Assembly (NCBI GenBank): GCA_035703635.1
Contig: DASSXV010000023.1
Location: 34,298 to 98,297, forward strand
DNA: 64,000 nucleotides
Source: Trueperaceae bacterium
GTDB lineage: Bacteria; Deinococcota; Deinococci; Deinococcales; Trueperaceae
Direction of reading: 5' to 3'
This document shows, in pieces, positions 7,313-63,242 of this stretch. The notes beneath the pieces were generated by a model, which saw only the letters and a list, made by a program, of their open reading frames with translations, did not search any database and was not told where the DNA came from. The stretch's first letter is position 1, and each line of letters opens with the position of its first letter. The position numbers and the translations under genes are program-made.

Positions 7313-7346
7313 GGTCGTCGATCCCGTACTGAGGGGCGTGATCCGC

Positions 7347-12260: not shown

Positions 12261-12361
12261 ACCCACATGCAATACGGCTTCAGGGGCGGGTGCTTCAGAC
12301 ACCTAGCCACCAGCACGGCTAACCCCGCACCCACGGGGCGAGAACACCGAAAGGACTAGGC

Positions 12362-13939: not shown

Positions 13940-13951
13940 GGTAGCGACGCT

Positions 13952-13985
13952 CGGGTTGGCCCGGCCACTGGCTTGGGCCAACCCG
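13952..13985 (+). terminator. Strong intercistronic stem-loop after SBP gene (mRNA stabiliser or attenuator)
   Basis: CGGGTTGGCCC...GGGCCAACCCG 11-bp inverted repeat, no U tract. Confidence 0.55.
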
Positions 13986-14049
13986 CCCCCAACGGCTCGC
14001 CGGCTCCCACGGGAGCGCTGCTCACGCGATAGGCAGGACCCGAGAAGGC

Positions 14050-15872: not shown

Positions 15873-15880
15873 GGAGACCA

Positions 15881-16858: not shown

Positions 16859-16861
16859 GCG

Positions 16862-17749: not shown

Positions 17750-18679
17750 TCAAGCACCCCCGTAGTACACGCGCCTGCTGCCGAAACGGAACTGCATTAC
17801 CGTCACCAACGCCACCAATGCCAGCAAGACCACGCTTTCTGCCGCTGCGAAGCCTAGGTTGGCCGCGCCGCCGAAGCCGTCCTGATAGATCTTGTAGATG
17901 AGCGTGCTCGTCACGCCGGCCTGGTCGAAAGGCGGCGAACCGACAGGGCCGCCGGCCGTGAGGATGTCGATGAGGCCGAAGGTGTCGAAGAAGGCGTAAA
18001 CCAAGTTGGTGAAGACGAGGAAGAACGTCATGGGCGAGAGGAGAGGCAGGGTGACGGCGAAGAAGCGCTGAACGGCCGTCGCGCCGTCGATCTGCGCGGC
18101 CTCGCCGAGTTCGGCTGGCACGTTCTGCAGGGCCGCAAGGTAGAAGACGATGTTGTAACCGAGGTTCTTCCAGATAGCCGCCATGCTGACTACCGCGAAC
18201 GCTAGTTGCGGCGTGTCGAGCCAGCGCGGCTTGATGCCGAACGAGGCGTTGAGCAGTTGGTTGATGACCCCAACTTCAGGGTTGAACATGAACAGGAAGA
18301 TAGTGCCGGCCACCGCAGGGGAGAGCGCGAACGGCCAGATGAGCAAGAGGCGATAGATGCGCGAACCGCGTACGGGCTGGTTTGCGAGAACGGCTAGTGC
18401 CAAGCTGACGCTGAGGCCGACGAGCACCACCACGCCGCTGAAGAGGACCGTCTGCAGCAGGACCTGGCGAAAGCCGGGCGCCAGCACGCCCGTGAAGATG
18501 TTGCGGAAGTTCTCGATGCCGATGTACTTCTGTGTGCCGAGGAACAAGTTGCTGCGGTAAAGGCTCAGTACGAACGACTGGATCACGGGGAAGTAGAGGA
18601 AGAGTAAGAGGATGAGGATGGTCGGCAGTAGCAGCAGCCACGGCAGCGAGCGGCTTCTGAAGACTGGGCTACCTCTCAT
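17750..18679 (-). CDS. Carbohydrate ABC permease, UgpA-like
   Basis: LIWPFALSPAVAG, WKNLGYNIVFYLAALQ, EAAQIDGA, PLLSPMTFFL. Confidence 0.92.
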   Translation of the reverse strand: MRGSPVFRSRSLPWLLLLPTILILLLFLYFPVIQSFVLSLYRSNLFLGTQKYIGIENFRNIFTGVLAPGFRQVLLQTVLFSGVVVLVGLSVSLALAVLANQPVRGSRIYRLLLIWPFALSPAVAGTIFLFMFNPEVGVINQLLNASFGIKPRWLDTPQLAFAVVSMAAIWKNLGYNIVFYLAALQNVPAELGEAAQIDGATAVQRFFAVTLPLLSPMTFFLVFTNLVYAFFDTFGLIDILTAGGPVGSPPFDQAGVTSTLIYKIYQDGFGGAANLGFAAAESVVLLALVALVTVMQFRFGSRRVYYGGA

Positions 18680-18742
18680 GCGCTCCCCTTAGCGACTCAC
18701 TAGCGCCGCGGCTAGGTGGTTCTCGTCGCCGCGGCTAGCGGC

Positions 18743-18775
18743 TGGGGTCGCCGCGTGTTGCGTGCGGCGACCCCA
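18743..18775 (-). terminator. Intercistronic stem-loop after SBP gene
   Basis: TGGGGTCGCCGC...GCGGCGACCCCA 12-bp inverted repeat. Confidence 0.55.
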
Positions 18776-18802
18776 ATGAATCAGACGGTGATGACGTGCG
18801 GT

Positions 18803-20104
18803 TTAGAAGTTGGCGTTGTACTCGGCGAGGGCCGCGTCGGCTAAGCGCTTGGCTTCTTCCAATGCGGACTCAACGGTGGCGCCAGCGAGGACCTTCTGAA
18901 CGGCCTGCTCGACGATGGTGCGGGTGGCCTGGAAGGTGCCCATGAGCGCGCCTGCGGTAGCCGAGTTGGGGATGGTGTCAAGGAGCTGGTCGAAGGCCGT
19001 GCTGGCGTTCGGGAACTCGGTGAACCAGCCCTCGTCACGCAGGAGTTGCACGCTGCTGATGCGCACCGGGTAGTAGCCGGTTGCCTTGTGCCACGACACC
19101 ATGTTCTCTGCGTTCGTCATGTACAGGACGAAGTCGCGAGCAACGAGGAGCTCTTCCATCGGGTGGTCGCGGACGATCCACACGCTGGCGCCCCCGATCA
19201 CGACGCCGTTGCGGGTTACGCCGTCCTGGATGGGCAGCATGCCAGTAACGAGCTCGAACTTGTCGCCGACCGCGTTGGTGATGTTGACGAGGTCAGCGGT
19301 CGAGGTGATGTGGAACATGACCTTGCCGTTGGTGAAGATGGCGTCCGAGCCGTCCCAGTCCTCGAGCTTGCCCGTGTAGGTGTAGTAGCCCTTGTCGTTC
19401 ATGGCCTTCCACCAGTTGAAGACGTTGGTTACGGCCTCGGACGTGAGTAGGACTTCGGTGGCGCGCCCGGCGCGCCCGTTGTCATTGTTCACGAGCGTTG
19501 CGCCCTGCTCAGCGACCCACTGCTCGACGAACCAACCGTTGAGGCTTACCCCGAAGCACTTGACGTCGGAGGTGAGGACCCCGGCCGCTGCCGCTGCGTC
19601 GCAGGCGGCCAGCATCTCGGAGTAGGTGAGTGGCACCGTCGTCACGCCAGCTGCGTCCATCAGGGTCTTGTTGGCGTAGGTGATGGGGCTGGAGGAGTTG
19701 AAGGGGATGGAGTTCACTTGCCCGTCGATGGTGTAGTAGTTCAGCACCGGGGCGATGTAATCAGACGTGTCGAACTCACCAAGTTCACCGACGGGGATGA
19801 AGATGCCGGAGTCGACGGCGATCTGGCTGCCTACCTCGTAAAGCTGCACGAGGTGCGGAGGGTTACCCTGGCGGGCCGCAAGAACGGCCGCCTGCTGCGT
19901 TTCCGGGTAGCTGCCCTTGCGCTCGCCGACCATCACGTACGGCCGACCGTCCTCGGCGAGTTGAGCGTTGAACTCGGTCATGCGGTCTTGGATCCAACCA
20001 GAGCGGTTGGCGTCCGAGAATGCATACCAGAACTCAATTTGGGTTTGGGCGAGTACGAACGAGAGCGAGGCGAGGGTAACTATGGCGAAAATAACGCGTT
20101 TCAC
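18803..20104 (-). CDS. ABC substrate-binding protein, UgpB-like (glycerol-3-phosphate/sugar)
   Basis: Signal peptide; KGSYPET, PPHLVQLYEVG, SIPFNSSSPI, IGGASVW, WHKATGYYP. Confidence 0.9.
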   Translation of the reverse strand: MKRVIFAIVTLASLSFVLAQTQIEFWYAFSDANRSGWIQDRMTEFNAQLAEDGRPYVMVGERKGSYPETQQAAVLAARQGNPPHLVQLYEVGSQIAVDSGIFIPVGELGEFDTSDYIAPVLNYYTIDGQVNSIPFNSSSPITYANKTLMDAAGVTTVPLTYSEMLAACDAAAAAGVLTSDVKCFGVSLNGWFVEQWVAEQGATLVNNDNGRAGRATEVLLTSEAVTNVFNWWKAMNDKGYYTYTGKLEDWDGSDAIFTNGKVMFHITSTADLVNITNAVGDKFELVTGMLPIQDGVTRNGVVIGGASVWIVRDHPMEELLVARDFVLYMTNAENMVSWHKATGYYPVRISSVQLLRDEGWFTEFPNASTAFDQLLDTIPNSATAGALMGTFQATRTIVEQAVQKVLAGATVESALEEAKRLADAALAEYNANF

Positions 20105-24981: not shown

Positions 24982-26289
24982 TCAGTCGACGAGCTCGAGC
25001 AGCCCGGCCGCCAGGCAGCGTTGGGCCGCGCTGTGCAGATCGGCGAGTGGCAGGCCGCTGCGCTCGTGGACGGCTAGGAGGTCATGGTCGCCGTCCGCGA
25101 AGTTGAGCACCCAGAAGATGGCGTCAGCTGCGCCGACGTTGCTCGCCCCGACCGTAAGGTCGGGGTAGAGGCCGCGGCCGCCGAGCTGCGGCTCCCCGAA
25201 CGGCGCCAGGCTGCGGTAGCGCGCACCACCTTGCTCGAGGGTGAGGCACAGCGCCTCGCATGCATCGATCGAACCCTGCAAGGCGGCGAACGAGATGAAC
25301 GCCTTGTCGTCATCCGAAGTGTGGTACTCGGGGTAGGTGCCGTACATGCTGCGCATGACGCTCCCGACGGGCAGGTCGAAACCGGGCGAGCAGTACTGCC
25401 GCTCGTCTGAGCCCAGCGGCGAGAAGTCGTGCCAGCGCACCTCCCCGAAAGCCGGAAGTGCGGCCACGGCCGCGCGGTCTGCGAGGCTGTCGCCGCGGCG
25501 CGAGCGCTTGTACGTTAGGGCGGCCCTGTCACCAAGGCATGTGAGCACGTACCCGGCGTCTAGCCTCTCGAGCAGGTGCTGACCGCGCATGCTCAGGTAG
25601 ACGATCGCGCCGATCGTTTCCGCCGCGAACACGAACCTGAACCCGAGACGGCGTGTCGGCCACTTGGCGAGGCGCGCGTACAGCCCAGCGGCCACCAGGG
25701 GGCCGGAGAGCTCGTTGTTGGCAAGCGATGGGTGGCACGTGTAGCTGGAGAGCAGCACCTCCCGACCCGACGTGCCGGGCAGCAGGCAGTCAGAGAGGGT
25801 CATGGCGCCGGGGAACGTCTCCGTGTCGACGACTACCTCGTACTCGCCCTCAGGCAACGCGTCGCGCTGGCGCTGGCTGAGGCAGAAGCCCCAGCGTGGG
25901 GCGTAGTAGCTAGTGGCGTACGGCACGGCGTTGGGCCGAGCTGGTAGCGAGTAGAGGTGGGCGTCAAGCTCTGAGCGCGAGAGGCGCCCGCGAAAAGCGA
26001 CGGAGTAGCCGAGCAGGTGCAGGTTGGAGTCGGCGTAGTCGATGACGCGCGTACCGTCGGGGCCGACCACGTAAGCCGCGTTGACGCGCCACTCGAGCGG
26101 CACGGTCCAGTCGTAGGCCGGCGTGCCGCTGGCAACCTCGTAACGCTCGAGCGGCATGGTCTCGGCCAGCACGTCGTGCGTCTCACGCACGCCAGCGCCG
26201 GTCAAGCTGCGCGCTAGGGGCCAGAGGCGGTCGAAGGTCGCTTCCAGCCAGGCGCGCTCCAGCTCTGCGCTAGTGGCGGCACTGCTCAC
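24982..26289 (-). CDS. DUF4910 (DUF2172) aminopeptidase-like protein with C-terminal wHTH
   Basis: RSLTGAGVRET, DWTVPLEW, NLHLLGYS, PYATSYY..WGFC, CHPSLANNELSGP, GSDERQYCSPG, YPEYHTS. Confidence 0.9.
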   Translation of the reverse strand: MSSAATSAELERAWLEATFDRLWPLARSLTGAGVRETHDVLAETMPLERYEVASGTPAYDWTVPLEWRVNAAYVVGPDGTRVIDYADSNLHLLGYSVAFRGRLSRSELDAHLYSLPARPNAVPYATSYYAPRWGFCLSQRQRDALPEGEYEVVVDTETFPGAMTLSDCLLPGTSGREVLLSSYTCHPSLANNELSGPLVAAGLYARLAKWPTRRLGFRFVFAAETIGAIVYLSMRGQHLLERLDAGYVLTCLGDRAALTYKRSRRGDSLADRAAVAALPAFGEVRWHDFSPLGSDERQYCSPGFDLPVGSVMRSMYGTYPEYHTSDDDKAFISFAALQGSIDACEALCLTLEQGGARYRSLAPFGEPQLGGRGLYPDLTVGASNVGAADAIFWVLNFADGDHDLLAVHERSGLPLADLHSAAQRCLAAGLLELVD

Positions 26290-35132: not shown

Positions 35133-36109
35133 GCTTGACCACCTGCCGGGGTGCGGTGCTGCGGTGCCGCGAAGCGCCTCGTGCCCTTGCGCAGTGCGGC
35201 GAGCACGAGGCTGGCGCCGGTGGCTGGGCGGGAGGTGATGGTGGCGAGGAGGTAGTGCAGCGCCGCCCCGTACTGGCCAGCGACGGCGCAATCCTCGAGG
35301 TACGAGAGGCCCCAGCGGGCGCCCATGCGCCGTTGCCAGGTAGCCAACTCGCGTTCGCTGAGGGCCCGCGCCGAGCGTACGTACTCTGCCGGCACGTCGA
35401 CCACGAGGCGGTCGTTGCTTAGCCTTCCCGTGGCCGAAGTGCGGAAGGTGGCGTTGTCGTCGTGCTTGTTCCAGGCGGCCGCAACGACGTCGACGAAGCC
35501 GACGCTGTTGCCTGGCAGGAGTGAAAGGAGGGCGATGGTGTCGCTGCCGACGCAGTCGTACGCGTAGAAGTTCGCGGCCAACGCGCGGTCGCGGCGGTAG
35601 AGCGCCGTGGCGTGCGGGATGCTGACGCTGCCGTCCGCGTAAGCGCGGAGGAGGTCGGTTCCGCTGTTGACGCGCTCCAGGTTGCGGTTGACGCTCGTCT
35701 CCTCGTACGTGCCGGTGCGCGCGGAGAAGTCGTCTGCGCGGGCGAACACGAGCGCCAACTCTGGCCGCTCGCGGTAAAGCTCCATGGCCTCCGCCAGGTA
35801 GTTCGGGTCTAGCAGCCAGTCGTCCCCGTCGAGGTTGAGGGCGACCACGCCAGTGGCGTCGTGGCGGAGCGTCGTGCGGTAGTTGGCCGTGCGGCCGAGG
35901 TTGCGCTCGCGCCGCACGTACCTGAGGCGCGGGTCGGCGAGGTAGTCGCTTACCACGGCGGCCGTCGCGTCTGGCGAGGCGTCGTCTGCCACGATCACCT
36001 CTAGTGGCGCGTAAGTCTGGGCGAGGGCGCTGTCGATGGCGTGCGCCAACAATTCGGCCTGACCGTAGGTTGGGATCATGATGGTGGCTAGCGGGCCGGT
36101 CCCACTCAT
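35129..36109 (-). CDS. GT2 glycosyltransferase
   Basis: IMIPTY, SALAQTY..LEVIVADDASPD, LDGDD. Confidence 0.9.
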   Translation of the reverse strand: MSGTGPLATIMIPTYGQAELLAHAIDSALAQTYAPLEVIVADDASPDATAAVVSDYLADPRLRYVRRERNLGRTANYRTTLRHDATGVVALNLDGDDWLLDPNYLAEAMELYRERPELALVFARADDFSARTGTYEETSVNRNLERVNSGTDLLRAYADGSVSIPHATALYRRDRALAANFYAYDCVGSDTIALLSLLPGNSVGFVDVVAAAWNKHDDNATFRTSATGRLSNDRLVVDVPAEYVRSARALSERELATWQRRMGARWGLSYLEDCAVAGQYGAALHYLLATITSRPATGASLVLAALRKGTRRFAAPQHRTPAGGQA

Positions 36110-37443
36110 GCTCTCACCGCCCCCGGCACCGTTGGGCTGCTAACGCCTGTCAGCGCGGCCTCCACGGCACGGGCGCTGCGCATGGCGGCGCCGCGCGGTT
36201 CGGAGAACATGGCCTGCGTAAGGGGCCTGGCGGCTCTAACGAGGTCAGCGGCGTAGGCGCCGTCGTGTAGCGCGGCGCGCACCATGCTGCCGACGTCCTC
36301 CTTGGCGGAGGCGTGCGGCAACCCTCGTTTGGCCCAATCGACAGGAACGTCATCTGGCAGCACCTGCAGCGCTGGCACGCCGATCGCGGCGGCTTCGAGC
36401 AGCAGGGTGGTCTGCGAACCGAGCACCACTCCCGCGCCGCTGACGAGGTCGTAACTGTCTCCGCTCGTCGCTAGTTGCTCGGCGCGGATGATGCCGTCAG
36501 CCACGAGTTCTTGGTACTTCTCCTTGCCCTCGCTTGGGTGTGGGCGATAGAGCGTTGGCGGCCCGTCGAGCCCACGTAACGCCTCGGCGACCAAGCGCAA
36601 CGCGCGGCGGTCTACGTCTTCCGCGTAGTTGGTGCCGAAGTAGACGGCGCCGCCGCGCTTGCCGTGCGCGCTTCTGTCCACGAGCAGGCCCTCCAAGCGC
36701 GGGTTGCCGACGACCGTGCTCGGCGGTGTCGGGCCCTCGAAGCTGGCGAGTTCGTCGCTGAAGTAGGGTCCCCAAGCCAGCAGCAGCGAGGAGCCCATGA
36801 AGTCGTGCTCCGGCCACGCTCCACTGAACACCCCGTGCTGCATGAGGAGGAGCGGCACGCCGGTTTCTCTGAAGCCTGTAAGCACGCCAGGCTCGAGCTT
36901 CGTGTGGATGGCGACGCCCACCTTGGCGGCGCTGGCCTCCAGGGCGCTAGCGGTTCTGGCGGCGTCGTACGCCTGAGTGCGCAGGACCGTCGTCAGCTCG
37001 AGGCGCCCCTCGTCCGTCAACCCCCAGCGCGCCGCGAAACGCGCCTCGTGACGCTTGAGTTGGCCGTAGTTCCCCTGTGCGCGACGCCACGCAGCGGGGG
37101 CCGCCTGCGGCCAGCCCGTGCTAGGCGTCAGTTGCGTGACGAGGGTGCCGCGCCGCTCTAGCTCCGCCGCCACCGGGCAAAGTAGCGGATAGTAGTCGGC
37201 CCTGTCTGGCACGTGGATCACGAGCACGTCGACCTTGCGCGCTGGCGCAGGCTCGACGACCCTGCGCCACGACTGCCGCGCCGCTCGCGCCACCACCGCG
37301 AAACGTAGGACGGCCGACCCGCCGAACAGGCGTTCGCCGCTAGCGATGCGCCGAAGCAGATAGGCGGAGTCCGCGAACGCAGGCGGGTAATCGGCCTGGA
37401 GTTCAGCGTGGAAAGCCACGAAAGCTGGTACGGCGGCTGGCAA
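36106..37443 (-). CDS. GT-B-fold protein, candidate nonulosonate (sialyl-like) transferase
   Basis: QHG, LAWG, VGNPR, RPHP.E, S.TT.LLEA...GVP motifs of CMP-ulosonate/CDP-glycerol transferase-like proteins; next to neu genes. Confidence 0.55.
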   Translation of the reverse strand: MPAAVPAFVAFHAELQADYPPAFADSAYLLRRIASGERLFGGSAVLRFAVVARAARQSWRRVVEPAPARKVDVLVIHVPDRADYYPLLCPVAAELERRGTLVTQLTPSTGWPQAAPAAWRRAQGNYGQLKRHEARFAARWGLTDEGRLELTTVLRTQAYDAARTASALEASAAKVGVAIHTKLEPGVLTGFRETGVPLLLMQHGVFSGAWPEHDFMGSSLLLAWGPYFSDELASFEGPTPPSTVVGNPRLEGLLVDRSAHGKRGGAVYFGTNYAEDVDRRALRLVAEALRGLDGPPTLYRPHPSEGKEKYQELVADGIIRAEQLATSGDSYDLVSGAGVVLGSQTTLLLEAAAIGVPALQVLPDDVPVDWAKRGLPHASAKEDVGSMVRAALHDGAYAADLVRAARPLTQAMFSEPRGAAMRSARAVEAALTGVSSPTVPGAVRA

Positions 37444-39314: not shown

Positions 39315-40394
39315 TCATGCCAGGTCGCTCCACTCGAGCTCGTGATCGGCTGGTAAGTCGTCCTTGATGGCGCGGCCGAGTATGGCGGGGTACTTGTCAG
39401 GGTCGATGCCAGTGCCTGGGCGCTTGAAGTCTAGGTCGGCGAGCGTAAGCACCGTGCCGGCAGGCAACGCCCGCCGCAGCACGACGCGGCGCCTGAACTT
39501 CAGGCGTTTCGCCTGCTCGGCTTCGCTCACGCGCCGTTCGCTGCTACCCAAGGACCGCTGCACGAAGCCGAGGTCGTGCGCTAGCGCCGTCAGCTCGGTC
39601 GGGTCTGCCGAAATGGCGTGGTCCCAGCCGGCTAGCTCCTTGTCGAGGGTGAAGTGCTTCTCCACCAGACACGCTCCCAAGGCTACGGCCGCGAAGGCGG
39701 CCGCCGTGCCGAGGGTGTGATCGCTGAAACCCACTGGCACTCCGAAGGCGCCCTCGAGCATGGGGATGTTGCGCAGGTTCACGTCGTCAGGGTCGGGCGG
39801 GTAGATCGAAACGCAGTGCAGAAGTATCACGGGGCCGGAGCCAGCGGCCCTTAGGGTATCGACCGCCGTCCCCACCTCCCCGAGCGTGGCCATGCCGGTG
39901 GAGAGGAGCACGGGTTTGCCGGTGGCGGCCACGCTGCGCAGGAGTACTGGGTGGTTCACGTCCATGGAGGCGATCTTGTACGCGGGCACGTCGAGCTCCG
40001 CGAGCATCTCCACCTCCTCAGGCGCGAACGGAGTGGATAGGAAGTCGATGCCGAGGTCCGCGCACTGGCGCGCGACGGCGCCGTGCATGGCGGGCGTCAT
40101 CTGGTAAGCCTCGACCATCTCCTGAAGGGTGCCGAAGTGCTTCTTCTTGTCCGAGTAACTCGTGTTGCGCTCGTACTCCGCGCGTCCGACGAGGCTCGAG
40201 GAACTCCAGGACTGGAACTTGACAGCGTCCGCTCCCGCGCGGTGGGCTGCCTCGACGAGGCGGTGGCATAGGTCAAGGTCGCCGTTGTGGTTGGACCCGA
40301 CCTCAGCGATCAAGTAGGGTGGCTGGCCCGGCCCAACGAGGCGGTCTGCGATTCTCACGGGAGCCACTCGAGCGGTGTTGCGGACGTCGGTCAC
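39315..40394 (-). CDS. neuB: Nonulosonic acid synthase (NeuB family) with SAF domain
   Basis: AEVGSNHNGD, KFQ, STPF, YKIASMD, LSTGM, LHCVSIYP, GFSDHT, EKHFTLD, KRPGTG. Confidence 0.95.
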   Translation of the reverse strand: MTDVRNTARVAPVRIADRLVGPGQPPYLIAEVGSNHNGDLDLCHRLVEAAHRAGADAVKFQSWSSSSLVGRAEYERNTSYSDKKKHFGTLQEMVEAYQMTPAMHGAVARQCADLGIDFLSTPFAPEEVEMLAELDVPAYKIASMDVNHPVLLRSVAATGKPVLLSTGMATLGEVGTAVDTLRAAGSGPVILLHCVSIYPPDPDDVNLRNIPMLEGAFGVPVGFSDHTLGTAAAFAAVALGACLVEKHFTLDKELAGWDHAISADPTELTALAHDLGFVQRSLGSSERRVSEAEQAKRLKFRRRVVLRRALPAGTVLTLADLDFKRPGTGIDPDKYPAILGRAIKDDLPADHELEWSDLA

Positions 40395-41308
40395 GTTGCT
40401 TCTTGCCTCCTACTATCAAGCCACTCCCACCAGCGGAAGACGCGTGGGTCGGCGTTCAATGCGTTCAGGTAGGCGTTGCGCTCGGCCTCGTCCGCGATCA
40501 CTCGCTCTTGAAACTCCCGCAGGTCGGCGGCCGCGAGTTCGATGAGGGCGCGCAGGCCGGGCGGTAGCGCGCGGCCAGATGGCATGGGGGAGAGCGCTAG
40601 CGCGTAGTGATTCGCCACCAGTGCGGTTGCCTTCAGCAGTTGCGCTTCCGTGAACGGTCGCGTCACGCCAGCGCTGCTTGCGCCGTGGAGCCGATAGCGG
40701 GCGCGGGGGGTCGGGTCGATGGTTAGGTGGGCGCCGCTCGCCAGCGCGCGCACAGCCACGAGCCAGTCGAGCAGGCGCGTGCCTGCCGGTGCGGGGAGGC
40801 AGTCGAGGAGGACCTCGCTGCGGTAGGCGGCGTTGCCGAAACCGACCACGTTGCTGCGGGCGAGGACCGAGGCCCAGTCGTCGATCGGTTCGGTGCCGAA
40901 GCGCCCGCCAGTTGGCGTGCCTGCCTCGTCCGTCAGCTCCAGGGCGCACGCCGCCACCTCGGCTTTCGCGAGTGCGGCGCGGGCGGCGGCCACGCGGGTG
41001 GGGAGGGGCACGTCGTCGGAGTCCATGAGCACGACACCGCTGGTTCCAGGCACAGTGCGCAGCAGGACTTCCTGGCGCAACGCCACGTGGTCCGCGGCGT
41101 GCTCAGCTCGGTGCGTGGCCGTGCGAGCGGCCAGGTCCGGCCCAGCGGCCGTCAGGTACGGGGCTAACTCAGCATCCTCGACGTCGTCGACCGCGACTAT
41201 GAGGTGGAAGTCGCTATCGGTCTGCTCAGCCAAGCCGCTGAGGAAGGCGGGCAGGTACCCCAGCCCTGCGCGGTACGCGGTGGTGAAGACCATCAGCATG
41301 TCAGGCAC
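40391..41308 (-). CDS. Divergent GT-A/GT2-like protein
   Basis: L.EQTD.DF.L, MDSDD (DxD), DW, YRLH motifs. Confidence 0.65.
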   Translation of the reverse strand: MPDMLMVFTTAYRAGLGYLPAFLSGLAEQTDSDFHLIVAVDDVEDAELAPYLTAAGPDLAARTATHRAEHAADHVALRQEVLLRTVPGTSGVVLMDSDDVPLPTRVAAARAALAKAEVAACALELTDEAGTPTGGRFGTEPIDDWASVLARSNVVGFGNAAYRSEVLLDCLPAPAGTRLLDWLVAVRALASGAHLTIDPTPRARYRLHGASSAGVTRPFTEAQLLKATALVANHYALALSPMPSGRALPPGLRALIELAAADLREFQERVIADEAERNAYLNALNADPRVFRWWEWLDSRRQEAT

Positions 41309-44964: not shown

Positions 44965-46215
44965 TCACTGCCCCTCGGCCATGGCGGTCACGAAGAAGGC
45001 GGCGGGTAAGTAGATGCGCCGCGGGGTAACGCCGCGCTCGAGCCGCTGGTAGACGGCGGCGTTCACGTCCGCCACTTTGCCGCTGGCGTCGAACGGCGCG
45101 AGCGAGCCGAAAGCCATGATGGCCCACTGGTCGCGCGTGACGCGCTCGTACCCTGGGTCGTTAGGCGGCAGCGGGGCGGCGGCGAGGTCGGCGAACGGCT
45201 GCTGGCCGCCAACGTCGACCGAGAAGTCAGTTGCGCCGTTGTCTATCACGAAGGTAGTGATGCCGCGCGCCAGCTCCGTGAGGAACGGCAACGAAGTGAA
45301 GGGCTGCATGCCTTCTGCCGCCAACTCGAGGATCGTCTGAACCGTGTAGGCAGCGTAAATGGTCGGCTGGAAGTAGTGAACATATGATTCCTCCCCCTGC
45401 ACGCCTTGGCCCCACACGAACGCCGGGCCGTTGGGCGTCGGGACGGCCAGGAACTCGCTGTTGAGGGCGTCGGCTAGCTTTTGCGCTTCCGTTGCGTAAC
45501 CGGGGTCGCCGGTGAGTAGGTTCATGTAGTGGTAGTAGCGCACCGTCTGCAGGTACGGGTGCATGAGCTCCGTGTAGAGGTAGTCGTAGCCGGTGGTCTT
45601 GGAGCGGGCGCGCCACTTGGGCTCGAAGTCGTTCTGGAGGTAACCAAGCCAGAAGTCCGCGCGTTCGGCGTAATCCACGCCGTTGGGGCTGACCTGGTCG
45701 CGGTTCTCCTGGTAGAGCCACGCCACCGCGGCTATGAGCCCGTGGGTCATGTCCTCGTCCATCGTGTGGTAGTCGTCGCCGTACCACTGCGAGTTGCCTG
45801 GGTCGTGGAGCCACGTCCAGTTGAGGTAGCCGTCGCCGTTAGTGTCTTTCAGGGTGGAGCGCACGACTTGCATGGTGCGATCGATCTCGTCTAGGAGCCC
45901 GAGGTCGCCGGTTATCCTGAAGACCTGCATGACGGTGGAGACGTGGACGTTGACGACCCGCCCGATCTGGTAGAGGTCGCCGCTTGCTGCCGCTTCGAGG
46001 CTGTTCGGGTAGATGTTGGGTGAGCGTAGCGCGGACCAGAAGCGTTCGTACCAGAGCCGCGCATCGGCTGGCAAAGTGGAGAGGTCGAAGGCGGGGTCGG
46101 CGCGGAGACCGCTCTGCATGGCGTTCGCTCCGCCCTCGCAGGCGGGCAGGCTGAGCACGGCCAGCACGGCGAGCGCGCGCCAGACGGCGCGCCACCTAGT
46201 GGTCTCGTGCCTCAT
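44965..46215 (-). CDS. Uncharacterised lipoprotein, predicted helical (alpha/alpha toroid-like) domain
   Basis: Lipobox LPAC; DTNGDG Ca-loop; strong similarity to the C-terminal domain of 47697-49412. Confidence 0.75.
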   Translation of the reverse strand: MRHETTRWRAVWRALAVLAVLSLPACEGGANAMQSGLRADPAFDLSTLPADARLWYERFWSALRSPNIYPNSLEAAASGDLYQIGRVVNVHVSTVMQVFRITGDLGLLDEIDRTMQVVRSTLKDTNGDGYLNWTWLHDPGNSQWYGDDYHTMDEDMTHGLIAAVAWLYQENRDQVSPNGVDYAERADFWLGYLQNDFEPKWRARSKTTGYDYLYTELMHPYLQTVRYYHYMNLLTGDPGYATEAQKLADALNSEFLAVPTPNGPAFVWGQGVQGEESYVHYFQPTIYAAYTVQTILELAAEGMQPFTSLPFLTELARGITTFVIDNGATDFSVDVGGQQPFADLAAAPLPPNDPGYERVTRDQWAIMAFGSLAPFDASGKVADVNAAVYQRLERGVTPRRIYLPAAFFVTAMAEGQ

Positions 46216-47590: not shown

Positions 47591-47645
47591 CGCCAAAAAA
47601 CCGGGGCGGGCGCCGTCAACGTGGCGCCCGCCCTTCTCTTTGGCG
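47591..47645 (-). terminator. Rho-independent terminator after the riboswitch-controlled lipoprotein gene
   Basis: GGGCGGGCGCC (47604-14)/GGCGCCCGCCC (47623-33) stem, followed on the minus strand by CGGTTTTTT. Confidence 0.75.
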
Positions 47646-47696: not shown

Positions 47697-49412
47697 CTAG
47701 CGACCCTTCACGAGGGCGTCGAGGAAGGCTGCCGCGCTCATGAACACACGCCTGGGAGCGTCCTGGTTGGACTCGTACGTCTGGTTGAGCTGCTTGGCGT
47801 TCGAGGCGATCTTGCCGCTCACGTCGGCCGTTGCTAGGGAGGGGGCGTAAGCGTAGATCACCCACTGCTCACCGGTCTTCGGGCCTTCCGTGTACTTGAG
47901 CGGGTAACCGCCGATGCTGACAGAACCACCGACGGTTGGAGCGAAGGTGTTCGTCCCCGTCATCATGAGGTTCGTCGCGCCGTTCGCGAACAGTTTCAGG
48001 TCGTTGAGGTCAAGCGTTCTGCTGCCGTCAAGCGCCAGGTCCTGCACCGCCTGCGTCACGTACTGGCCGTACACGATCGGCATGAGGTCGGGGTAGGCGT
48101 TACCTTCGCTGACCATGCCCCACGGGTAGACGTACGCCGTCGAGCCGCCCACGGACACTTCCTTGAGGTTGAGCTCGAAGCGTCCAGCGCGGCGCTCCGC
48201 CTCGTTGGTGTACGCGCTGTTGCCCGTGATCTTGCCCATGTACCAGAAGTAGCGCGTGTATTGCACCCAGGTGTGCGTCAAGTAGGAGTTGAGGAAGCCC
48301 ATGCTGGAGGCGCTGACGCGGCTGCGGGAGCGCCACTTGGCCTCGAAGTGGTTCTTGAGGTAGTTCGTCCAGAAGTCGGCGCGCTCGGCGTAATTGATGC
48401 CTGCCGGGCTCTTGAGGTCGCGGTTCGCCTGGTACGCCCACGCCACCGCGGCCACGAAGCCGTGCGTGATGCTCTCGTCCATCTCGTGGCGGTCGTTGCC
48501 GTACCAACTGCCGTTGTTGGGGTCGTGCAGCCAGCGCCAGTTGAGGAAGCCGTCGCCGTTGGTGTCCCTTAGGGTGCCGCGGGCGGCCTGCATGATGCGG
48601 TCCATCTCGTCGAGGAGCGCCAAGTCGCCCGTGTAGCGGAACGCCGTCAGCATGGTCGTCACGTGCACGTTCACGTAGCGGCCGAGTTGGTACAGGTCAC
48701 CAGACGCCGCTGATTGCATGACGTTGGGGTACTGGCTGCTTGACTTCAGGCCAGCCCAGAACCTGTCGTACCAGAGGCGCGCCTCGCTGCCGAGCTGGGT
48801 CCTGACGAAGGCCGGATTGCCGCGCAGGTCGGTGCCGGTCTTGCCCGGGTTCGTTGGCGGCACGGGGTCGGTTGGTGGCGGCGACCCTGGGTCGGTTGGC
48901 GGCTGGGGGTCGGTTGGCGGCTTTGGGTCGGTAGGGGGCTGCGGGACCGGCGCGGACTTGTTCGCCACTGTGAAAGAGGCCTTGAAGTCGTAGCGGCGGA
49001 CGCCACGCCGCGTCGCGACGGTCGTGCGGCTCACGAGGTAGTGCTTGCCGTCCTTCAGCTTGGTGGTGTCGATGCTGACGTTGAACGGCTCGCTCGTGTC
49101 CTTCTTGATCAACGCGGAGCGGCCGGTGCCGTCGAGGTAGAACTCGACGGAAACGACGTAGTCGCGGTGGTTCATCGCCACTTCGATAGTGCCGGAGACG
49201 GTGCTGTCCTTGAGCTGTTTGATCTCTGTCGCGCTGTTGGTTGCGGTGGAGAAGACGATGTCGTCCGTCGTCAACTCGGGTTGTGGCATCGGTTCTTCGG
49301 CTGGCGTCGAACAGGCCGCTAGTACCAGCATCAGGCCGGCTAGCACTGCTAGCAGGCTTCTCGACCGCCTGTGCGGTGCTGACGTGCCTCGTGCGTCGTT
49401 ATTGCTCCTCAC
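47697..49412 (-). CDS. Lipoprotein: Ig-like domain + Pro/Thr linker + helical domain paralogous to 44965-46215
   Basis: GTG 49412 after GAGGAG; lipobox LAAC; V.SVEFYLDG...D...PF...IDTT.L.DG.H Ig-like motif; PPTDP repeats. Confidence 0.8.
   Translation of the reverse strand: MRSNNDARGTSAPHRRSRSLLAVLAGLMLVLAACSTPAEEPMPQPELTTDDIVFSTATNSATEIKQLKDSTVSGTIEVAMNHRDYVVSVEFYLDGTGRSALIKKDTSEPFNVSIDTTKLKDGKHYLVSRTTVATRRGVRRYDFKASFTVANKSAPVPQPPTDPKPPTDPQPPTDPGSPPPTDPVPPTNPGKTGTDLRGNPAFVRTQLGSEARLWYDRFWAGLKSSSQYPNVMQSAASGDLYQLGRYVNVHVTTMLTAFRYTGDLALLDEMDRIMQAARGTLRDTNGDGFLNWRWLHDPNNGSWYGNDRHEMDESITHGFVAAVAWAYQANRDLKSPAGINYAERADFWTNYLKNHFEAKWRSRSRVSASSMGFLNSYLTHTWVQYTRYFWYMGKITGNSAYTNEAERRAGRFELNLKEVSVGGSTAYVYPWGMVSEGNAYPDLMPIVYGQYVTQAVQDLALDGSRTLDLNDLKLFANGATNLMMTGTNTFAPTVGGSVSIGGYPLKYTEGPKTGEQWVIYAYAPSLATADVSGKIASNAKQLNQTYESNQDAPRRVFMSAAAFLDALVKGR
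48845..48950 (-). repeat. Coding ~18-bp tandem repeat (PPTDPx) linker
   Basis: Translation PQPPTDPKPPTDPQPPTDPGSPPPTDPVPPTNP. Confidence 0.85.
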
Positions 49413-49497
49413 GTACTCCTCGCATTCCGGTAGGCACGGGATCGCCACGCCTACCTAAAGAACCCTCTTAGCCTGGGATGTGAGGAAGCAAAAGGAA

Positions 49498-49577
49498 GCC
49501 CTCGGCCGGTTGCGCTACTGGCTCCGCGTACCCCAAGCGCCCACGTTGCGGGGTAGGCATCTACGCCTCTGAGGGTG
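49498..49577 (-). ncRNA. Cyclic di-GMP-II riboswitch (cis-regulatory, 5' UTR of lipoprotein gene)
   Basis: Minus strand reads CCCUC AGAGGC GUAGAUG C CUACCCC GCAACG UGGGCGCUU GGGGUA CGC GGAG CC AGUAGCGCAACCGGCC GAGGG, with P1 CCCUC/GAGGG, P2 GGC/GCC, inner stem UACCCC/GGGGUA and pseudoknot GCGCU/AGCGC; matches the remembered class-II layout. Confidence 0.8.
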
Positions 49578-49828
49578 CGGGCGGCTCTGCCGCCCAGATA
49601 CCCGCCGAGTTGCGTTCTGAACGCTTGGGCCGCTCATTGCGCTGGCAGCTCCCTCGGCTCCATGAAGATAACTGGCCTAGTTGGCGTTTCGTCTTAGTAG
49701 GCGATGAAGTAGATGAGCGTCGCACGCGCTGTCTAGGGGCGCTTAGCGTCTGGCGCGCGGTTAACTGGCTCTCATCAGGGTGGCGCGGGTCGGGCAGTCC
49801 GGGTACGTGCGCGGGAGTCGTTGACCCC

Positions 49829-51385
49829 TCAGGTAGGGGCTCCCGAAGTTCGAGCGTCCTGAGTGACGGGCGCGTCTGGAAGGTCGTAGGTCGCGCTGCG
49901 CGCCATGGCGGCCGGGTCGTCGCGTTTCGCCTGCGTGATGACGAGACCGTAGACGTGGCCACCGACGCGGCGCAGTGCAGCGAGCTCGCCTACGACGAGG
50001 CGCTTGCGGAGGCGGTGAGCTTTGGTCACCAACACCGTGCCAGACACGAGCGGGGCGACGAGGGCGGCGTCTTGCGATGTGCTCCACGGTGCCGACCTCA
50101 CGATCACGACGTCGAACTCCTCGCGCCATCTCGCTAGTTGGCCGGCGAACGCGCGCGTTAGCGCGGTCGGGCCGTGGCTGAGGGGAGTCGTCTCGTACAA
50201 CACGTAGAGAGGCTGAGTTTGGCCGATGGGGACGGGGTTAGCTTGATACTGCTGCTCCGGGTGCTTGAGGTAGTCGCTTAGGTTCGTCGCGTGCCTGCCG
50301 CTGCTGCGGTAGAGGTTCTGGAGGCGCGGGTCCGCCATGTCCGCGTCGACGAGGAGCGTGCGGTAACCGCTGAACGTCAAGGCCTCTGCCAGTGCGGCCG
50401 CAACGGCGACGGCGCCCTCGTTCGCCCCAACGCTAGAAACGTGGATCGCCGCCGGGTAGGCCCCGCCTGCCGTCACGGCGAGGCCGTCCCTAAGCTGGCC
50501 GCCCGCCTCGACTGAGTAGCTCTGCTCGCGCTTGGCGGTTCCGAAGATGGCGAGCAGCGGCAGGCGCGTGGCGCGTAGCGCGTCTTCGGCGCTATAGATG
50601 CGGGGGTCAAGGGTCTCGCGCAAGAAGAGATAGCCGTATACGAGGGCGACTATGAGGAGGGCGGCGAGTGCAGCGTTGAACAGCGGCGTCGGCGCCACGG
50701 TAGTGAGAGGCGGCGCTGCGCTGCGCAGGAGCGTGACACTCCCTGGCGCATCCTGAGCAAGCTTCTCGGCGGCGCTCAGGTCTTCCTGCGTTTGAGCAGC
50801 TACCGTCTGCAGCGCCACGAGGCGGGCGCTGGCCGCTTGGTCCTGGGCGTCTATGCGCTGGAGCTCAGCTGCCGTGCTTGCGGCGCGCTGCTGCAGTACT
50901 GTGATCAGCTCCTTGAGGGCGGCCGCGCTTCGAGCGGCGTCCCACGCCACCAGTTCACCTGTCACCGCGTTGGCAGTCTGCGCAGCGCCAGCGGCCGTGC
51001 CTGCCGTGACGGTCACGTATACGAGCAGCGCCTGCGTGTCAGTGCTGATGGCAGTGCGCTCGCGCAGGCGCTGCACGGCACTAGGGGTGACGGTCACATC
51101 CTGCTCAGCTAGCGCAGCGCCGAGCAGGTCATCCGAGAGAGCGGCGATGCGGTAAGCCGTGACGTGCAGCGCCGGAACCACGACGCTCGGCAGCCCGTAC
51201 TTGCTGCTATCGAACCCGGTTGGCGAGATGGCGACGACCGCCTGCGCCGAGTAGCTCGGCGGCAGGCGGCGCGTGTACGCGTACACGAGAGCAGCCGTTG
51301 CCGCCGCCAGCAGCAGCGCTACGAGCAGGCCGCGTTTGATCAGCGCGATGACGCGGTCGAGGCTCAGCACGATTTGCTCGCTCAA
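49829..51385 (-). CDS. Wzc/Wzz-like polysaccharide co-polymerase with degenerate tyrosine-kinase domain
   Basis: TM, Y.A.A, coiled coil, P..P..N second TM, then LLVDAD kinase-like domain; TTG 51385 after GAGGAG. Confidence 0.85.
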   Translation of the reverse strand: MSEQIVLSLDRVIALIKRGLLVALLLAAATAALVYAYTRRLPPSYSAQAVVAISPTGFDSSKYGLPSVVVPALHVTAYRIAALSDDLLGAALAEQDVTVTPSAVQRLRERTAISTDTQALLVYVTVTAGTAAGAAQTANAVTGELVAWDAARSAAALKELITVLQQRAASTAAELQRIDAQDQAASARLVALQTVAAQTQEDLSAAEKLAQDAPGSVTLLRSAAPPLTTVAPTPLFNAALAALLIVALVYGYLFLRETLDPRIYSAEDALRATRLPLLAIFGTAKREQSYSVEAGGQLRDGLAVTAGGAYPAAIHVSSVGANEGAVAVAAALAEALTFSGYRTLLVDADMADPRLQNLYRSSGRHATNLSDYLKHPEQQYQANPVPIGQTQPLYVLYETTPLSHGPTALTRAFAGQLARWREEFDVVIVRSAPWSTSQDAALVAPLVSGTVLVTKAHRLRKRLVVGELAALRRVGGHVYGLVITQAKRDDPAAMARSATYDLPDAPVTQDARTSGAPT

Positions 51386-51555
51386 CTTGACGACTCCTCG
51401 ACTACAGCAGGCGCCCAACGTGCGGCCCCAGGCTGCGGAACCTGATTATCCGGCGTCACCCCGGCCACTTAGGCGCAAACGTCACGTAGCGGGAGAGGGT
51501 CCGCGGCGATCGTAGCCGCCGGGGCCGCCGCGGCGTGACTTATCATCTCCTGCAG

Positions 51556-60837: not shown

Positions 60838-61617
60838 ATGACCTTGCCAAACCAGTACGTCATCCAATCAGCTCTGCGCACCCTCCAAGTACTCTTGGCG
60901 TTCGGCAAGCCGCCGCACCGCTACGGCCTAGCCGACCTGCAGCAGGTGACGCCGTTCGAGAAGAACCAGCTCTACCGCTCACTTCGCACCCTCGAAGCTG
61001 GTGGTTTCATCGTCGCAGACAGTAGCGGTCGCTACACCGTCACCCCTATCGCCAACGTCCTCAGCGCGGCCAGCGCCCACGGGCGGCCCCACACGCTCGT
61101 CGAGGTCGCTTCACCGCAACTAGACGCGCTGGCCGACGAGACAGGGGAATCCGTGAACCTCAACGCCCTGGCTGGTGACCAAGCGGTCTGCCTTGACCGC
61201 CGCGAGAGTGCCCACAAGGTGCGCCTCGCTTCGGTGCTCGGCCAAGCTGTGCCGCTGCACGCTGGCGCCGGACCGAAGGCGATGCTCGCGTTCCTCGACG
61301 AGGGCAGGCGCGCGCGCATCCTCGGTAGGCTCGCCTCTTACCCCAGCTACTCCGCGACCACGCTGCGCGACGCTCAACTCCTCGCCGAGGAACTCGAGGC
61401 CACCCGCGAGCGCGGTTACTCGATCAGTGACGAGGACTACGACGAGGGCGCCCGCGGTGTCGGCGCGCCGATCTTCGACGGTAGTGGCCAAGTCGTTGGC
61501 GCCGTCAGCGTCGGAGGCCCATCGTTCCGCGTCGGCCGTGAAGAGCTGACGCGCTTCGCACCGCTCATCGTCCGAGTCGCCAAGACCATCTCGCAGGGCC
61601 TCGGCTACTCAGGGTGA
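60838..61617 (+). CDS. IclR-family transcriptional regulator
   Basis: IQSALRTLQVL HTH; L..ETGESV; PLHAGA..KAMLA; RGYSISDE; GAPI; AVSV.GP. Confidence 0.93.
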   Translation: MTLPNQYVIQSALRTLQVLLAFGKPPHRYGLADLQQVTPFEKNQLYRSLRTLEAGGFIVADSSGRYTVTPIANVLSAASAHGRPHTLVEVASPQLDALADETGESVNLNALAGDQAVCLDRRESAHKVRLASVLGQAVPLHAGAGPKAMLAFLDEGRRARILGRLASYPSYSATTLRDAQLLAEELEATRERGYSISDEDYDEGARGVGAPIFDGSGQVVGAVSVGGPSFRVGREELTRFAPLIVRVAKTISQGLGYSG

Positions 61618-61637
61618 GGAATCTCAAGGAGGACCGC

Positions 61638-63242
61638 ATGCCCCCGATCCGTGTCTTTCGTAAAGCTCGTAGGCTACTCGCAGCTGCACTGCTGCTCGTA
61701 GCCGCCTCGGCCCTAACGGCCAGCGCGCAGGACTACGACCCGAAGGGTTCGTTGACCTTCGCGACCAACGCCGACCCAACCCTCAACCCGTGGAACGCCT
61801 CGGCCGTCATCGAGTCGAACCTCATCAACACGATCCTCTTCGACCAGCTCGTGCGTTACGACCCGACCGACCTGCGCCCAGCCCCAGGCCTCGCCGAGAG
61901 CTGGGAGACCGCGGCCGATGGCCTTAGCTGGACCTTCCACCTGCGCCAGGACGTCACCTGGTCGGACGGCGAGAAGTTCAACGCGGACGACGTCGTCTTC
62001 ACCTTCAACGACGCCATCCTCGTCAAGGAGCTCGGCGCCAACCGCGCCTCGACGTTCACGCCCGTAGACCGGGTCGTCAAGGTCGACGATTACACCGTCG
62101 TCTTCGAGCTCAACAAGCCGTTCTCCTCGCTTCCCTACTACCTCGCCTACTACTCGGGGATGCTGCCGGAGCACGTGCTCAAGGGCGCGGAGAACCCGCT
62201 GACCGTGGCCTCGTTCAACAAGGGCAAGCCCGTCGTCACCGGCCCGTACCGCGTGGACGAGTTCGTGTCTGGCGCCTACGTTCGCCTCGTGCCGAACGAG
62301 AACTACTGGGGACCAAAGCCCAAGCTCGCCTCCATCACTTTCAACATCATTCCCGACGGCAACGCCCAAGTGGCGCAGCTCCTCGCTGGCGGCCTCGACA
62401 TGGTGTCTATCACCAACCCGGCGCTCCTCGCGGGCGTGTCGCGTAACCCCAACCTCGAGGTCATCCGCCAGAGCCAGAACATCTGGTACTTCGTCGCCCT
62501 CAACCTCGACGACCCGCGCTTCCAGGACGTACGCGTGCGCCAGGCGCTCCTCAGCGCCATCGACCGCGAGGCCATGATCGCTGCCATCGTCGAAGGCTAC
62601 GGCGTTGAGGCCACCGGCCCGATCGCCCCGCTCCTCCAGGCCTTCTACGACACCGACGTCGCTCACTGGCCCTACGACCCAGAACTAGCCAAGTCCCTCC
62701 TCGCAGACGCAGGCTGGACGCCAGGCGCGGACGGCATCCTGCAGAAGGACGGCGAGCGCCTCACCATCGACATGCCGACCGGCCAGTTCGGTTACCTCGT
62801 GCCAGCCACGCTGCTCGTCCAGCAGTACTGGGAAGACGTCGGCGTCGAAGTGAAGGTAGACACGATCGAGTGGAACGCCTTCATCCAGAAGGCCGTGGTC
62901 AACCGCGACTACGACGCCATGCTGGCGTGGTGGAGCACCCCGCCCACCCCAGACCAGTCCGGTTACTTCGCCTCGGCAGCCGCCGAGGTCGGCAACAACA
63001 TCCCCAACTACCGCAACCCCGAGCTCGACGCCCTGTGGGAAGAGGGCCGCGCAGCCACCACCCTCGACGACCAGATCGCCATCTACAAGCAGGTGCAGCA
63101 GATCATCGCCGAGGAACTGCCTTACCTCTTCCTCTGGTACCCGGACATGATCGCGGTGCGCAACACGCGCATCGGCGGCATGTACGACATCAATAGCGCA
63201 GCGAACTTCCAGTACTCGTTCAACTGGTTCGTCAAGCCGTAA
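61638..63242 (+). CDS. Family-5 ABC substrate-binding protein
   Basis: SD AGGAGG; signal peptide; PGLAESWE, FHLRQDVTWSDGEKFNADDVVFTF, TGPY. Confidence 0.95.
   Translation: MPPIRVFRKARRLLAAALLLVAASALTASAQDYDPKGSLTFATNADPTLNPWNASAVIESNLINTILFDQLVRYDPTDLRPAPGLAESWETAADGLSWTFHLRQDVTWSDGEKFNADDVVFTFNDAILVKELGANRASTFTPVDRVVKVDDYTVVFELNKPFSSLPYYLAYYSGMLPEHVLKGAENPLTVASFNKGKPVVTGPYRVDEFVSGAYVRLVPNENYWGPKPKLASITFNIIPDGNAQVAQLLAGGLDMVSITNPALLAGVSRNPNLEVIRQSQNIWYFVALNLDDPRFQDVRVRQALLSAIDREAMIAAIVEGYGVEATGPIAPLLQAFYDTDVAHWPYDPELAKSLLADAGWTPGADGILQKDGERLTIDMPTGQFGYLVPATLLVQQYWEDVGVEVKVDTIEWNAFIQKAVVNRDYDAMLAWWSTPPTPDQSGYFASAAAEVGNNIPNYRNPELDALWEEGRAATTLDDQIAIYKQVQQIIAEELPYLFLWYPDMIAVRNTRIGGMYDINSAANFQYSFNWFVKP

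Follow-up and report, generated by a model that had tools for sequence, protein, structure and literature searches.

The closest described counterparts of the element reported here are the class II riboswitches for cyclic di-GMP (c-di-GMP), collected in Rfam as c-di-GMP-II (RF01786). In these RNAs, which lie in 5' leaders, the helices P1, P2 and P3 meet in a three-way junction, a pseudoknot joins a loop to the tail and an AACCG motif contributes to the ligand pocket; in the crystallised example 3Q3Z, residues A69, A70 and G73 recognise and intercalate both guanines of the ligand (PMC13715770). At the regulatory level, four class II riboswitches have been studied in C. difficile and all of them are transcriptional ON switches, whose targets (for example pilA1, downstream of Cdi-2-4) encode surface or secreted proteins rather than enzymes of c-di-GMP metabolism (PMC6366702). 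Riboswitches for c-di-GMP have also been described as enriched in the phylum Deinococcota (PMC12452182). In a search of literature listings and passages, no publication was found that links class II riboswitches of Truepera or other Deinococcota to the lipoprotein family described below, and neither its pairing with glycan loci nor its convergent class I control was found in print.

The present analysis concerns a 64,000-nucleotide (nt) stretch of a Trueperaceae bacterium (contig DASSXV010000023.1, positions 34,298 to 98,297), referred to as the window, in which a class II aptamer precedes the gene of a 571-residue lipoprotein. The reading favoured here, to which as a whole a probability of about 0.8 is assigned, is that the aptamer lies in the leader of a monocistronic lipoprotein gene at the edge of a nonulosonate glycan cluster. 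Control would act on translation, a point held with less confidence, and OFF is its most likely direction, at even odds. The window element shares its three-way junction, pseudoknot, pocket motif and leader position with the family as a whole, and its aptamer class and the surface or secreted nature of its target with the C. difficile riboswitches. Unlike those transcriptional ON switches, it has no canonical intrinsic terminator between aptamer and start codon in a consensus scan of positions 48500-50500, and it would act by sequestering the Shine-Dalgarno (SD) sequence and the start codon, probably as an OFF switch.

Identity and structure of the aptamer

The whole window was scanned on both strands with cmscan against the 4227 families of Rfam 15 at gathering thresholds. 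The sole match was to RF01786, at 49579-49495 of the minus strand, with 62.8 bits against a gathering threshold of 53.5 and an E-value of 1.2e-11. It spans the entire model without truncation (positions 1-84 of 84), and a lower-scoring match from the same Rfam clan was discarded in its favour. The c-di-GMP-II identity had been proposed beforehand in a reading of the DNA letters made without database searches (the sequence-only reading), and the covariance match bears it out; the helices, the loop and the tail all lie where that reading had placed them when the sequence is set against the Rfam structure line (Table 1). The P1 helix of the window is short, with 5 canonical pairs against 11 in the model. 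The pseudoknot reads GGGCGC/GCGC against the Rfam consensus GGGCAC/GUGC, and it is a compensated one because the consensus A-U pair at columns 42/66 is replaced by G-C, as the sequence-only reading had proposed from a comparison with the clostridial class II aptamer.

Covariation was assessed in an alignment of the window aptamer with 22 related aptamers from the loci described below (designated by L numbers), from which L010 (identical to L006) and the L012 duplicate were excluded; the 23 aptamers give 22 distinct rows. Pairs were counted on the Rfam structure plus the five-pair pseudoknot, 27 pairs in all. Paired cells amounted to 88.2% of 592, against 78.9% in shuffles, a figure that leans towards the Rfam structure, since the helices counted are those of the Rfam line; none of 500 shuffles reached the observed score, and controls with slid partners gave 35-42% of cells paired. 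Changes on both sides of a pair occurred at 18 of the 27 pairs. By helix, P1 was paired in 79.2% of cells with both-sided change in 7 of its 11 pairs, P2 in 97.0% with such change in 2 of 3, and P3 in 89.8% with such change in all 8. The five pairs of the pseudoknot were paired in every cell of the 22 rows, and its outer pair (columns 44/64) was divided evenly between C-G and U-A, with 11 rows each. Covariation in these sequences thus supports every helix of the aptamer.

The GCGC/GCGC version of the pseudoknot is present in all 23 aptamers, and is therefore a clade-wide form and not a peculiarity of the window. The AACCG motif of the tail is likewise invariant (23/23). It probably corresponds to A69, A70 and G73 of 3Q3Z, judging from motif spacing in the published description. 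The clade-wide exchange raises the question of whether the Deinococcota-type aptamer senses another cyclic dinucleotide, such as 3',3'-cyclic GMP-AMP (cGAMP), given that small changes to the c-di-GMP-II scaffold can yield cGAMP binding (PMC13715770). The exchange is nevertheless a compensated pair within the pseudoknot helix, outside the pocket, whose own motif does not vary, and RF01786 outscored the variant model of the same clan. In addition, one homologue of the lipoprotein is preceded by a class I c-di-GMP aptamer and another, in locus L040, has a GGDEF cyclase gene directly upstream. A change of ligand thus appears very improbable. Still less credible is a chance match or a decayed relic deprived of any regulatory role, which would have to be reconciled with the E-value and full length of the match, the covariation and a gene pairing conserved across many genomes. 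Judged by identity, structure and covariation, the segment 49579-49495 is thus a genuine aptamer of the c-di-GMP class II riboswitches, in a Deinococcota-type form.

The window aptamer also differs from the family model in what precedes it. A perfect 7-base-pair G/C stem abuts its 5' end, is present in every leader fold computed and has a comparable counterpart at the same place in L022, the closest relative; it may serve to stabilise the 5' end or act as a stacking helix. In relatives other than L022, the 5' flank lengthens P1 by about 9 base pairs instead of forming a hairpin.

Association with a single protein family

In a protein collection, 104 relatives of the lipoprotein, mostly metagenomic, were found at E <= 1e-3. 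The C-terminal domain that they have in common is joined to a variety of N-terminal modules (Big_7, PKD, FN3, ricin and Calx-beta). A profile-guided scan of species-representative genomes, in which relatives of the lipoprotein came overwhelmingly from metagenome-assembled genomes (MAGs) of Trueperaceae and Deinococcaceae, yielded 47 loci, mostly of Trueperaceae MAGs, and all of their approximately 477 kb were scanned with Rfam. This gave 24 class II matches, 23 of them distinct (those of L012 and L028 overlap on one contig), and one class I match. Directly upstream of a family member lie 21 of the 23 distinct class II aptamers, so that the recurrence of the riboswitch-gene pairing in related genomes, which had been put forward as a check of the initial proposal, is indeed found. 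Seventeen of them sit 70-103 nt before the SD-preceded start of 16 homologues matched by tblastn, and four more (L016, the tandem pair of L020, and L039) precede three paralogues (blastp E-values of 1e-66, 2e-62 and 4e-48). As for the remaining two, that of L045 precedes a lipoprotein open reading frame (ORF) that runs off the contig and that of L047 precedes a copy split between frames.

Counted from the side of the genes, a riboswitch is found before 17 of the 36 homologues whose upstream region could be assessed; in the other 11 loci the frame continues without a stop as far as the end of the contig. Because the loci were chosen for containing the family, the association is inflated; in the flanks of the 47 loci, no gene outside the family had an aptamer. 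Lipoboxes, judged by eye, are present in all 16 homologues preceded by a class II riboswitch and in those of L016, L020, L039 and L045. In 6 of 10 loci examined, the neighbours of the riboswitch-bearing homologue include glycosyltransferase, Wzy or other polysaccharide genes. The closest relative, L022, is syntenic with the window, with SDR, YgjP and MFS genes followed by the riboswitch and the homologue.

The single class I aptamer (RF01051, 60.8 bits) lies at L004:5314-5391, 37 nt upstream of a Desulfuromonas homologue with a Calx-beta N-terminal domain. It shares with the window the second messenger and the target protein family, and differs from it in its unrelated aptamer fold, its phylum and the Calx-beta module in place of Big_7. 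On these sequence grounds, class I control in Desulfuromonas is read as a convergent recruitment of the same protein family.

Several particularities of the related loci were also recorded. In an uncultured Truepera contig, the diguanylate cyclase gene upstream of the riboswitch-controlled homologue occupies L040:269-1312, and the contig, which also has a RepB-primase-like gene, is possibly a plasmid or mobile element. Tandem complete c-di-GMP-II aptamers, approximately 120 and 300 nt apart, occur at L018:5561-5850 and L020:9313-9783, each pair before a single family member in one of two Trueperaceae MAGs, an arrangement that suggests cooperative or two-threshold control. The contig shared by L012 and L028 (JBBDRK010000029.1) has two family paralogues about 6 kb apart with a riboswitch on only one of them. 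The aptamer tends to be missing from short family forms (about 400 residues) that have no Ig-like module at the N terminus.

The lipoprotein and its C-terminal domain

The target named in the sequence-only reading, a lipoprotein with an Ig-like domain and a proline-rich linker, was recovered in each of its parts. Its signal peptide ends with the lipobox L-A-A-C at residues 31-34 (residues 20-34 being LLAVLAGLMLVLAAC, judged by eye), a Big_7 Ig domain occupies residues 69-126 (Pfam, E 3.2e-8), and a proline-rich linker at residues ~150-190 leads into a C-terminal domain of about 375 residues (~195-571). The in-frame ORF opens at 49448, and the start preceded by an SD is the GUG at 49412, which coincides in the alignment with the start of its closest homologue, that of L022; position 49412 is preferred for these two reasons. 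Public gene calls differ on this point: the 583-residue cluster representative P0003 would begin at the GTG at 49448, inside the leader, and the ESM Atlas record begins at residue 42 (~49289) and loses the signal peptide.

The C-terminal domain has no family in Pfam, which reports Big_7 only, or in NCBIfam, which reports none. In the Protein Data Bank (PDB), a phmmer sequence search returned just two chance-level matches (E 0.013 and 0.019) and a profile search returned none. AlphaFold2, run with a 56-sequence alignment, gave a mean confidence (pLDDT) of 88.6 for the whole protein; residues 195-571 modelled alone reached a pLDDT of 97.5 and a predicted template-modelling score of 0.95, as an all-helical toroid. 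Foldseek comparison of the whole model with the PDB retrieved eight matches at E <= 1e-3, which cover glycoside hydrolase (GH) family 76, the polysaccharide lyase BACCELL_00875, a GH9-like exo-glucosaminidase, 3h7l (an endoglucanase-related protein of Vibrio parahaemolyticus) and the heparin lyase exoHep. With the domain alone, the best matches were GH76 alpha-1,6-mannanases (E 1.8e-3, TM-score 0.44-0.47), followed by GH105, GH8, GH127 and GH9. Nearly all the PDB fold matches listed are (alpha/alpha)6 carbohydrate-active enzymes. These data lead to the prediction that the domain is an unnamed (alpha/alpha)6-toroid-like domain and probably a glycan-active enzyme.

The weakness of the fold matches weighs against an enzymatic interpretation. 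The domain alone gave no Foldseek match to the PDB at E <= 0.001, and the fold matches of the domain are weak (TM-score 0.40-0.48, identity 9-17%), which is the reason why activity is given here as a probability. The closest clusters in the ESM Atlas (0.94-0.95) consist of hypothetical proteins without a name; the named leads (Pec_lyase, GH76, GH127-like and GH47), at 0.84-0.87, fall below the reliable level and were set aside. Membership in GH76 (PF03663) or in another named (alpha/alpha)6 carbohydrate-active enzyme family was likewise discarded, as sequence profiles did not bear it out and the likeness is one of fold only. Set beside the known (alpha/alpha)6 enzymes (GH76 6shm, 5m77 and 4boj; GH105; GH8 Rex8A and CelA; GH127; BACCELL_00875), the domain thus shares the predicted fold class, in a protein that is secreted and embedded in a glycan locus, and differs from them in lacking any Pfam, NCBIfam, PDB sequence or profile match. 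Ten residues are invariant in the 56 sequences (D283, D287, D307, Y341, A345, F347, W348, K359, W360 and R363), and catalytic residues are not mappable.

It is plausible, in the light of the model and of the genes nearby, that the lipoprotein binds or cleaves the polysaccharide of its own locus. Glycanases encoded in exopolysaccharide operons, such as BcsZ and AlgL, are analogous. Between the two roles first suggested for the protein, glycan remodelling fits better and attachment fits less well, given the resemblance of the C-terminal domain to glycan-active enzymes.

Extent of the regulated unit

The riboswitch and the lipoprotein gene lie between a Wzz/tyrosine-kinase-like gene and a glycan cluster containing NeuB. 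A gap of 225 nt with two hairpins separates the lipoprotein gene from the next gene, whose start is at 47471, and the strength of the terminator in this gap is what makes the riboswitch-lipoprotein unit, most simply, monocistronic, with the lipoprotein gene as its only member. It might be argued that, through read-through or polarity, control by the riboswitch extends to the entire downstream cluster (47471-24982), since every gene between 49412 and 24982 has the same orientation and a consensus scan found no separate promoter for the next gene. This extension is improbable: an 11 G-C-pair stem with its U6 tract, plus a further hairpin, would have to be crossed, and in related loci (L015, L011 and L018, for example) the genes beside the homologue often lie on the other strand, from which it follows that the conserved unit is a single gene. 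The whole 25-kb stretch was accordingly rejected as the regulated unit on account of the terminator.

The neighbouring cluster itself was described as a nonulosonate locus in the sequence-only reading, and its gene content sustains that description. It comprises genes for an FG-GAP protein, a PglK-like ATP-binding cassette (ABC) flippase, an epimerase/dehydratase, a PseF-like cytidylyltransferase, NeuB, a NeuD-like acetyltransferase, a CBS-nucleotidyltransferase, a glycosyltransferase of family 2 (GT2), Wzy, a GT1, AsnB, a second GT2, a priming Bac_transf transferase, a DegT aminotransferase, a pyruvyl transferase and a DUF4910 protein. NeuB matches PF03102 with E 6.8e-82, and the NeuD/PglB/VioB family TIGR03570 scores 201.2 against a cut-off of 160.8; the PseF-like cytidylyltransferase, at 177.7, stays below its cut-off of 205.7. 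The synthase scores for NeuB (327.7) and PseI (282.3) are both under cut-off and do not indicate any single nonulosonate. With synthase, cytidylyltransferase and accessory enzymes together, nonulosonic-acid (NeuB-type) glycan cluster is, from gene content, a fair description.

Leader folding and direction of control

As first proposed, the aptamer belongs to the 5' leader of the lipoprotein gene: both are on one strand, and the aptamer ends 83 nt before the start. Related leaders span 70-103 nt. The minimum free energy (MFE) fold of the leader (-81.9 kcal/mol) contains the aptamer together with a helix between the CU-rich tract that follows P1 and GAGGAG-UAC-GUG-AGGAG. This helix extends over the SD, the GUG start and six bases beyond it, and encloses the hairpin 49455-49429. 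The pairing of UUCCUC with the SD anticipated in the sequence-only reading is part of it. An alternative fold (-76.4 to -78.6 kcal/mol) is the MFE structure of nascent prefixes ending at 49458 and 49430; in it ACCCUC pairs with GAGGGU, GCUUGGGGU with AUCCCAGGC, and the 3' strand of P1, GAGGGC, with the CU tract, so the anticipated competition of the second GAGGGU for the 5' strand of P1 also appears in folds of nascent length.

The related leaders repeat the same order of aptamer, pyrimidine-rich anti-SD, inner hairpin (in most of them) and SD, and the SD region is paired with upstream sequence in the MFE fold of 15 of 16 leaders. In 10 of 15, the anti-SD bases at least partly pair with the 3' half of the aptamer before the SD is made. 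When the ligand-bound state was imposed as a constraint, SD accessibility fell in L011 (from 0.50 to 0.21), L014 (0.31 to 0.12) and L015 (0.42 to 0.28). Within the 30 nt after the aptamer, a run of four U is present in 8 of 24 cases, compared with 3.7% of background windows, and in several relatives an extended P1 helix leads directly into the U-run.

According to the mechanism proposed from these folds, binding of c-di-GMP would lock P1 and the pseudoknot and leave the CU tract free, and the freed tract would then capture the SD together with the GUG start and the six bases that follow, turning translation OFF. Without ligand, the nascent RNA would take the alternative fold, in which GAGGGC occupies the CU tract and the SD emerges free. 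The lipoprotein, glycan-processing or glycan-degrading, would thus be made at low c-di-GMP. Control at the level of translation, by sequestration of the SD and the start, is reasonably probable on the modelled structures; for the direction, a kinetic switch that is OFF with c-di-GMP, the odds are even.

Several observations weigh against this mechanism. SD accessibility in the window is alike in the free (0.29), bound-constrained (0.34) and P1-blocked (0.29) states, and the shift under the bound constraint does not exceed 0.06 in 13 of the 16 leaders. Folding of the window prefixes depends on the assumed 5' end: with an end 30 nt before the aptamer the anti-SD bases are unpaired with the 3' half of the aptamer, and with an end at 49600 they pair with GAGGGC. 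The AUCCCAGGC pairing is not kept in the closest relative, L022, and the fold of the whole leader is not unusually stable against shuffles (z -1.04), in a test that is blind to the pseudoknot. The consensus scan of 48500-50500 found no sigma-70-like promoter, and read-through transcripts are possible because the upstream Wzz-like gene is co-directional. The only terminator-like site of that scan lies at 49380-49398 on the plus strand.

The opposite direction, an ON switch in which c-di-GMP raises expression of the lipoprotein so that it is made together with exopolysaccharide, is rather unlikely, although it draws on the uniform ON behaviour of the four C. difficile class II riboswitches (PMC6366702). 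The 5' strand of P1, ACCCUC, is itself anti-SD-like and would be locked away by ligand binding. Many exopolysaccharide operons co-express a glycanase. Equilibrium folds sequester the SD with or without the aptamer constraint, and an activating step is therefore needed in both the ON and the OFF models. Against an ON switch, the CU anti-SD tract lies outside the aptamer, on its 3' side, and formation of P1 leaves it free; under the bound constraint, no leader of the 16 showed a rise in SD accessibility above 0.06, and three showed a drop of at least 0.14; and the extended P1 followed by a U-run in several relatives would terminate transcription when the aptamer is folded. The translational OFF switch is tentatively retained as the preferred reading for the window.

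Features and surroundings of the locus

The features of the locus are collected in Table 1. The bacterium is an uncultured one, and the best named relatives of its leucyl aminopeptidase, 67-68% identical, carry the labels Deinococcales or Trueperaceae. Within the glycan cluster, the last gene (24982-26289, minus strand) combines DUF4910, DUF2172 and a winged-helix HTH_47 in an aminopeptidase-like architecture. Three ORFs of the cluster, 44965-46215, 40391-41308 and 36106-37443 (minus strand; 416, 305 and 445 residues), have no Pfam family, and the first two have no NCBIfam family either. GGDEF, EAL and HD-GYP domains were found in none of the 49 window ORFs scanned. Elsewhere in the window, 5542-20104 and 61614-63242 contain several ABC uptake systems of peptide/oligosaccharide type (SBP_bac_5 three times, SBP_bac_8 and six BPD_transp_1 permease genes) with GntR and IclR regulators, which appear unrelated to the riboswitch.

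Table 1. Position of the aptamer, leader elements, lipoprotein gene and neighbouring features in the 64,000-nt window
Feature	Position	Strand	Remarks
P1 helix	CCCUC 49575-49571 with GAGGG 49503-49499	minus	sequence and Rfam structure line
P2 helix	GGC 49567-49565 with GCC 49522-49520	minus	sequence and Rfam structure line
P3 helix, UACCCC with GGGGUA	within 49559-49526	minus	sequence and Rfam structure line
Aptamer loop UGGGCGCUU	49543-49535	minus	
Aptamer tail AGUAGCGCAACCGGCC	49519-49504	minus	
Pseudoknot 5' strand GCGCU	49536-49540	minus	alignment columns 40-44; partner 49516-49512
Pseudoknot 3' strand AGCGC	49512-49516	minus	alignment columns 64-68
Ligand-pocket motif AACCG	49511-49507	minus	directly after pseudoknot 3' strand
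5' hairpin GGGCGGC-AGA-GCCGCCC	49579-49595	minus	perfect 7-bp G/C stem abutting aptamer 5' end
CU-rich tract CUUCCUUUUGCUUCCUCAC	49480-49498	minus	directly 3' of P1; candidate anti-Shine-Dalgarno
UUCCUC	49487-49482	minus	
AUCCCAGGC	49479-49471	minus	complementary to aptamer GCUUGGGGU (49538-49530); candidate competitor
Second GAGGGU	49467-49462	minus	complementary to P1 5' strand ACCCUC (49576-49571); candidate competitor
Inner hairpin GGUAGGCGUGG-CGAUC-CCGUGCCUACC	49429-49455	minus	between anti-SD tract and SD; leader folds
Shine-Dalgarno GAGGAG	49421-49416	minus	
GUG start codon	49412-49410	minus	
Lipoprotein gene, 571 aa	47697-49412	minus	ORF; stop codon 47699-47697
Intrinsic terminator	47595-47633	minus	11 G-C pairs then UUUUUU; downstream of lipoprotein gene
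Other hairpin after stop codon	~47667-47639	minus	
Wzz-like chain-length determinant with BY-kinase-like domain	49829-51418	minus	TIGR01007 E 4.3e-20, below cut-off; no Pfam
Glycan cluster, ~22 kb, about nineteen co-directional genes	24982-47471	minus	Pfam and NCBIfam

Implications

The RNA itself belongs to a known family and is not surprising to a specialist, and the riboswitch alone adds little because any Rfam-based annotation would find it. The gain lies in its target, since the c-di-GMP aptamers in about 477 kb of related Deinococcota loci are found almost exclusively next to members of an unnamed secreted family, and a regulatory and genomic context is now attached to a protein family of unknown function. 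The leaders of these genes also supply natural examples of class II expression platforms that would act on translation, a mode less studied than that of the clostridial transcriptional ones. The presence of glycan-synthesis genes around the family, and its predicted glycanase-like toroid, lead to the testable hypothesis of a c-di-GMP-regulated processing of surface glycans.

A more far-reaching proposal, held only tentatively, is that the C-terminal domain defines a new glycan-active family that constitutes the principal riboswitch output of c-di-GMP in Trueperaceae, under translational OFF control, and that was recruited independently under a class I aptamer in Desulfuromonas. If this were true, the polarity of the switch would be opposite to that of the characterised C. 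difficile class II riboswitches and its level of control different. The domain family would be an exopolysaccharide depolymerase or processing enzyme, and low c-di-GMP would trigger the remodelling or shedding, by this enzyme, of a surface glycan that bears nonulosonates.

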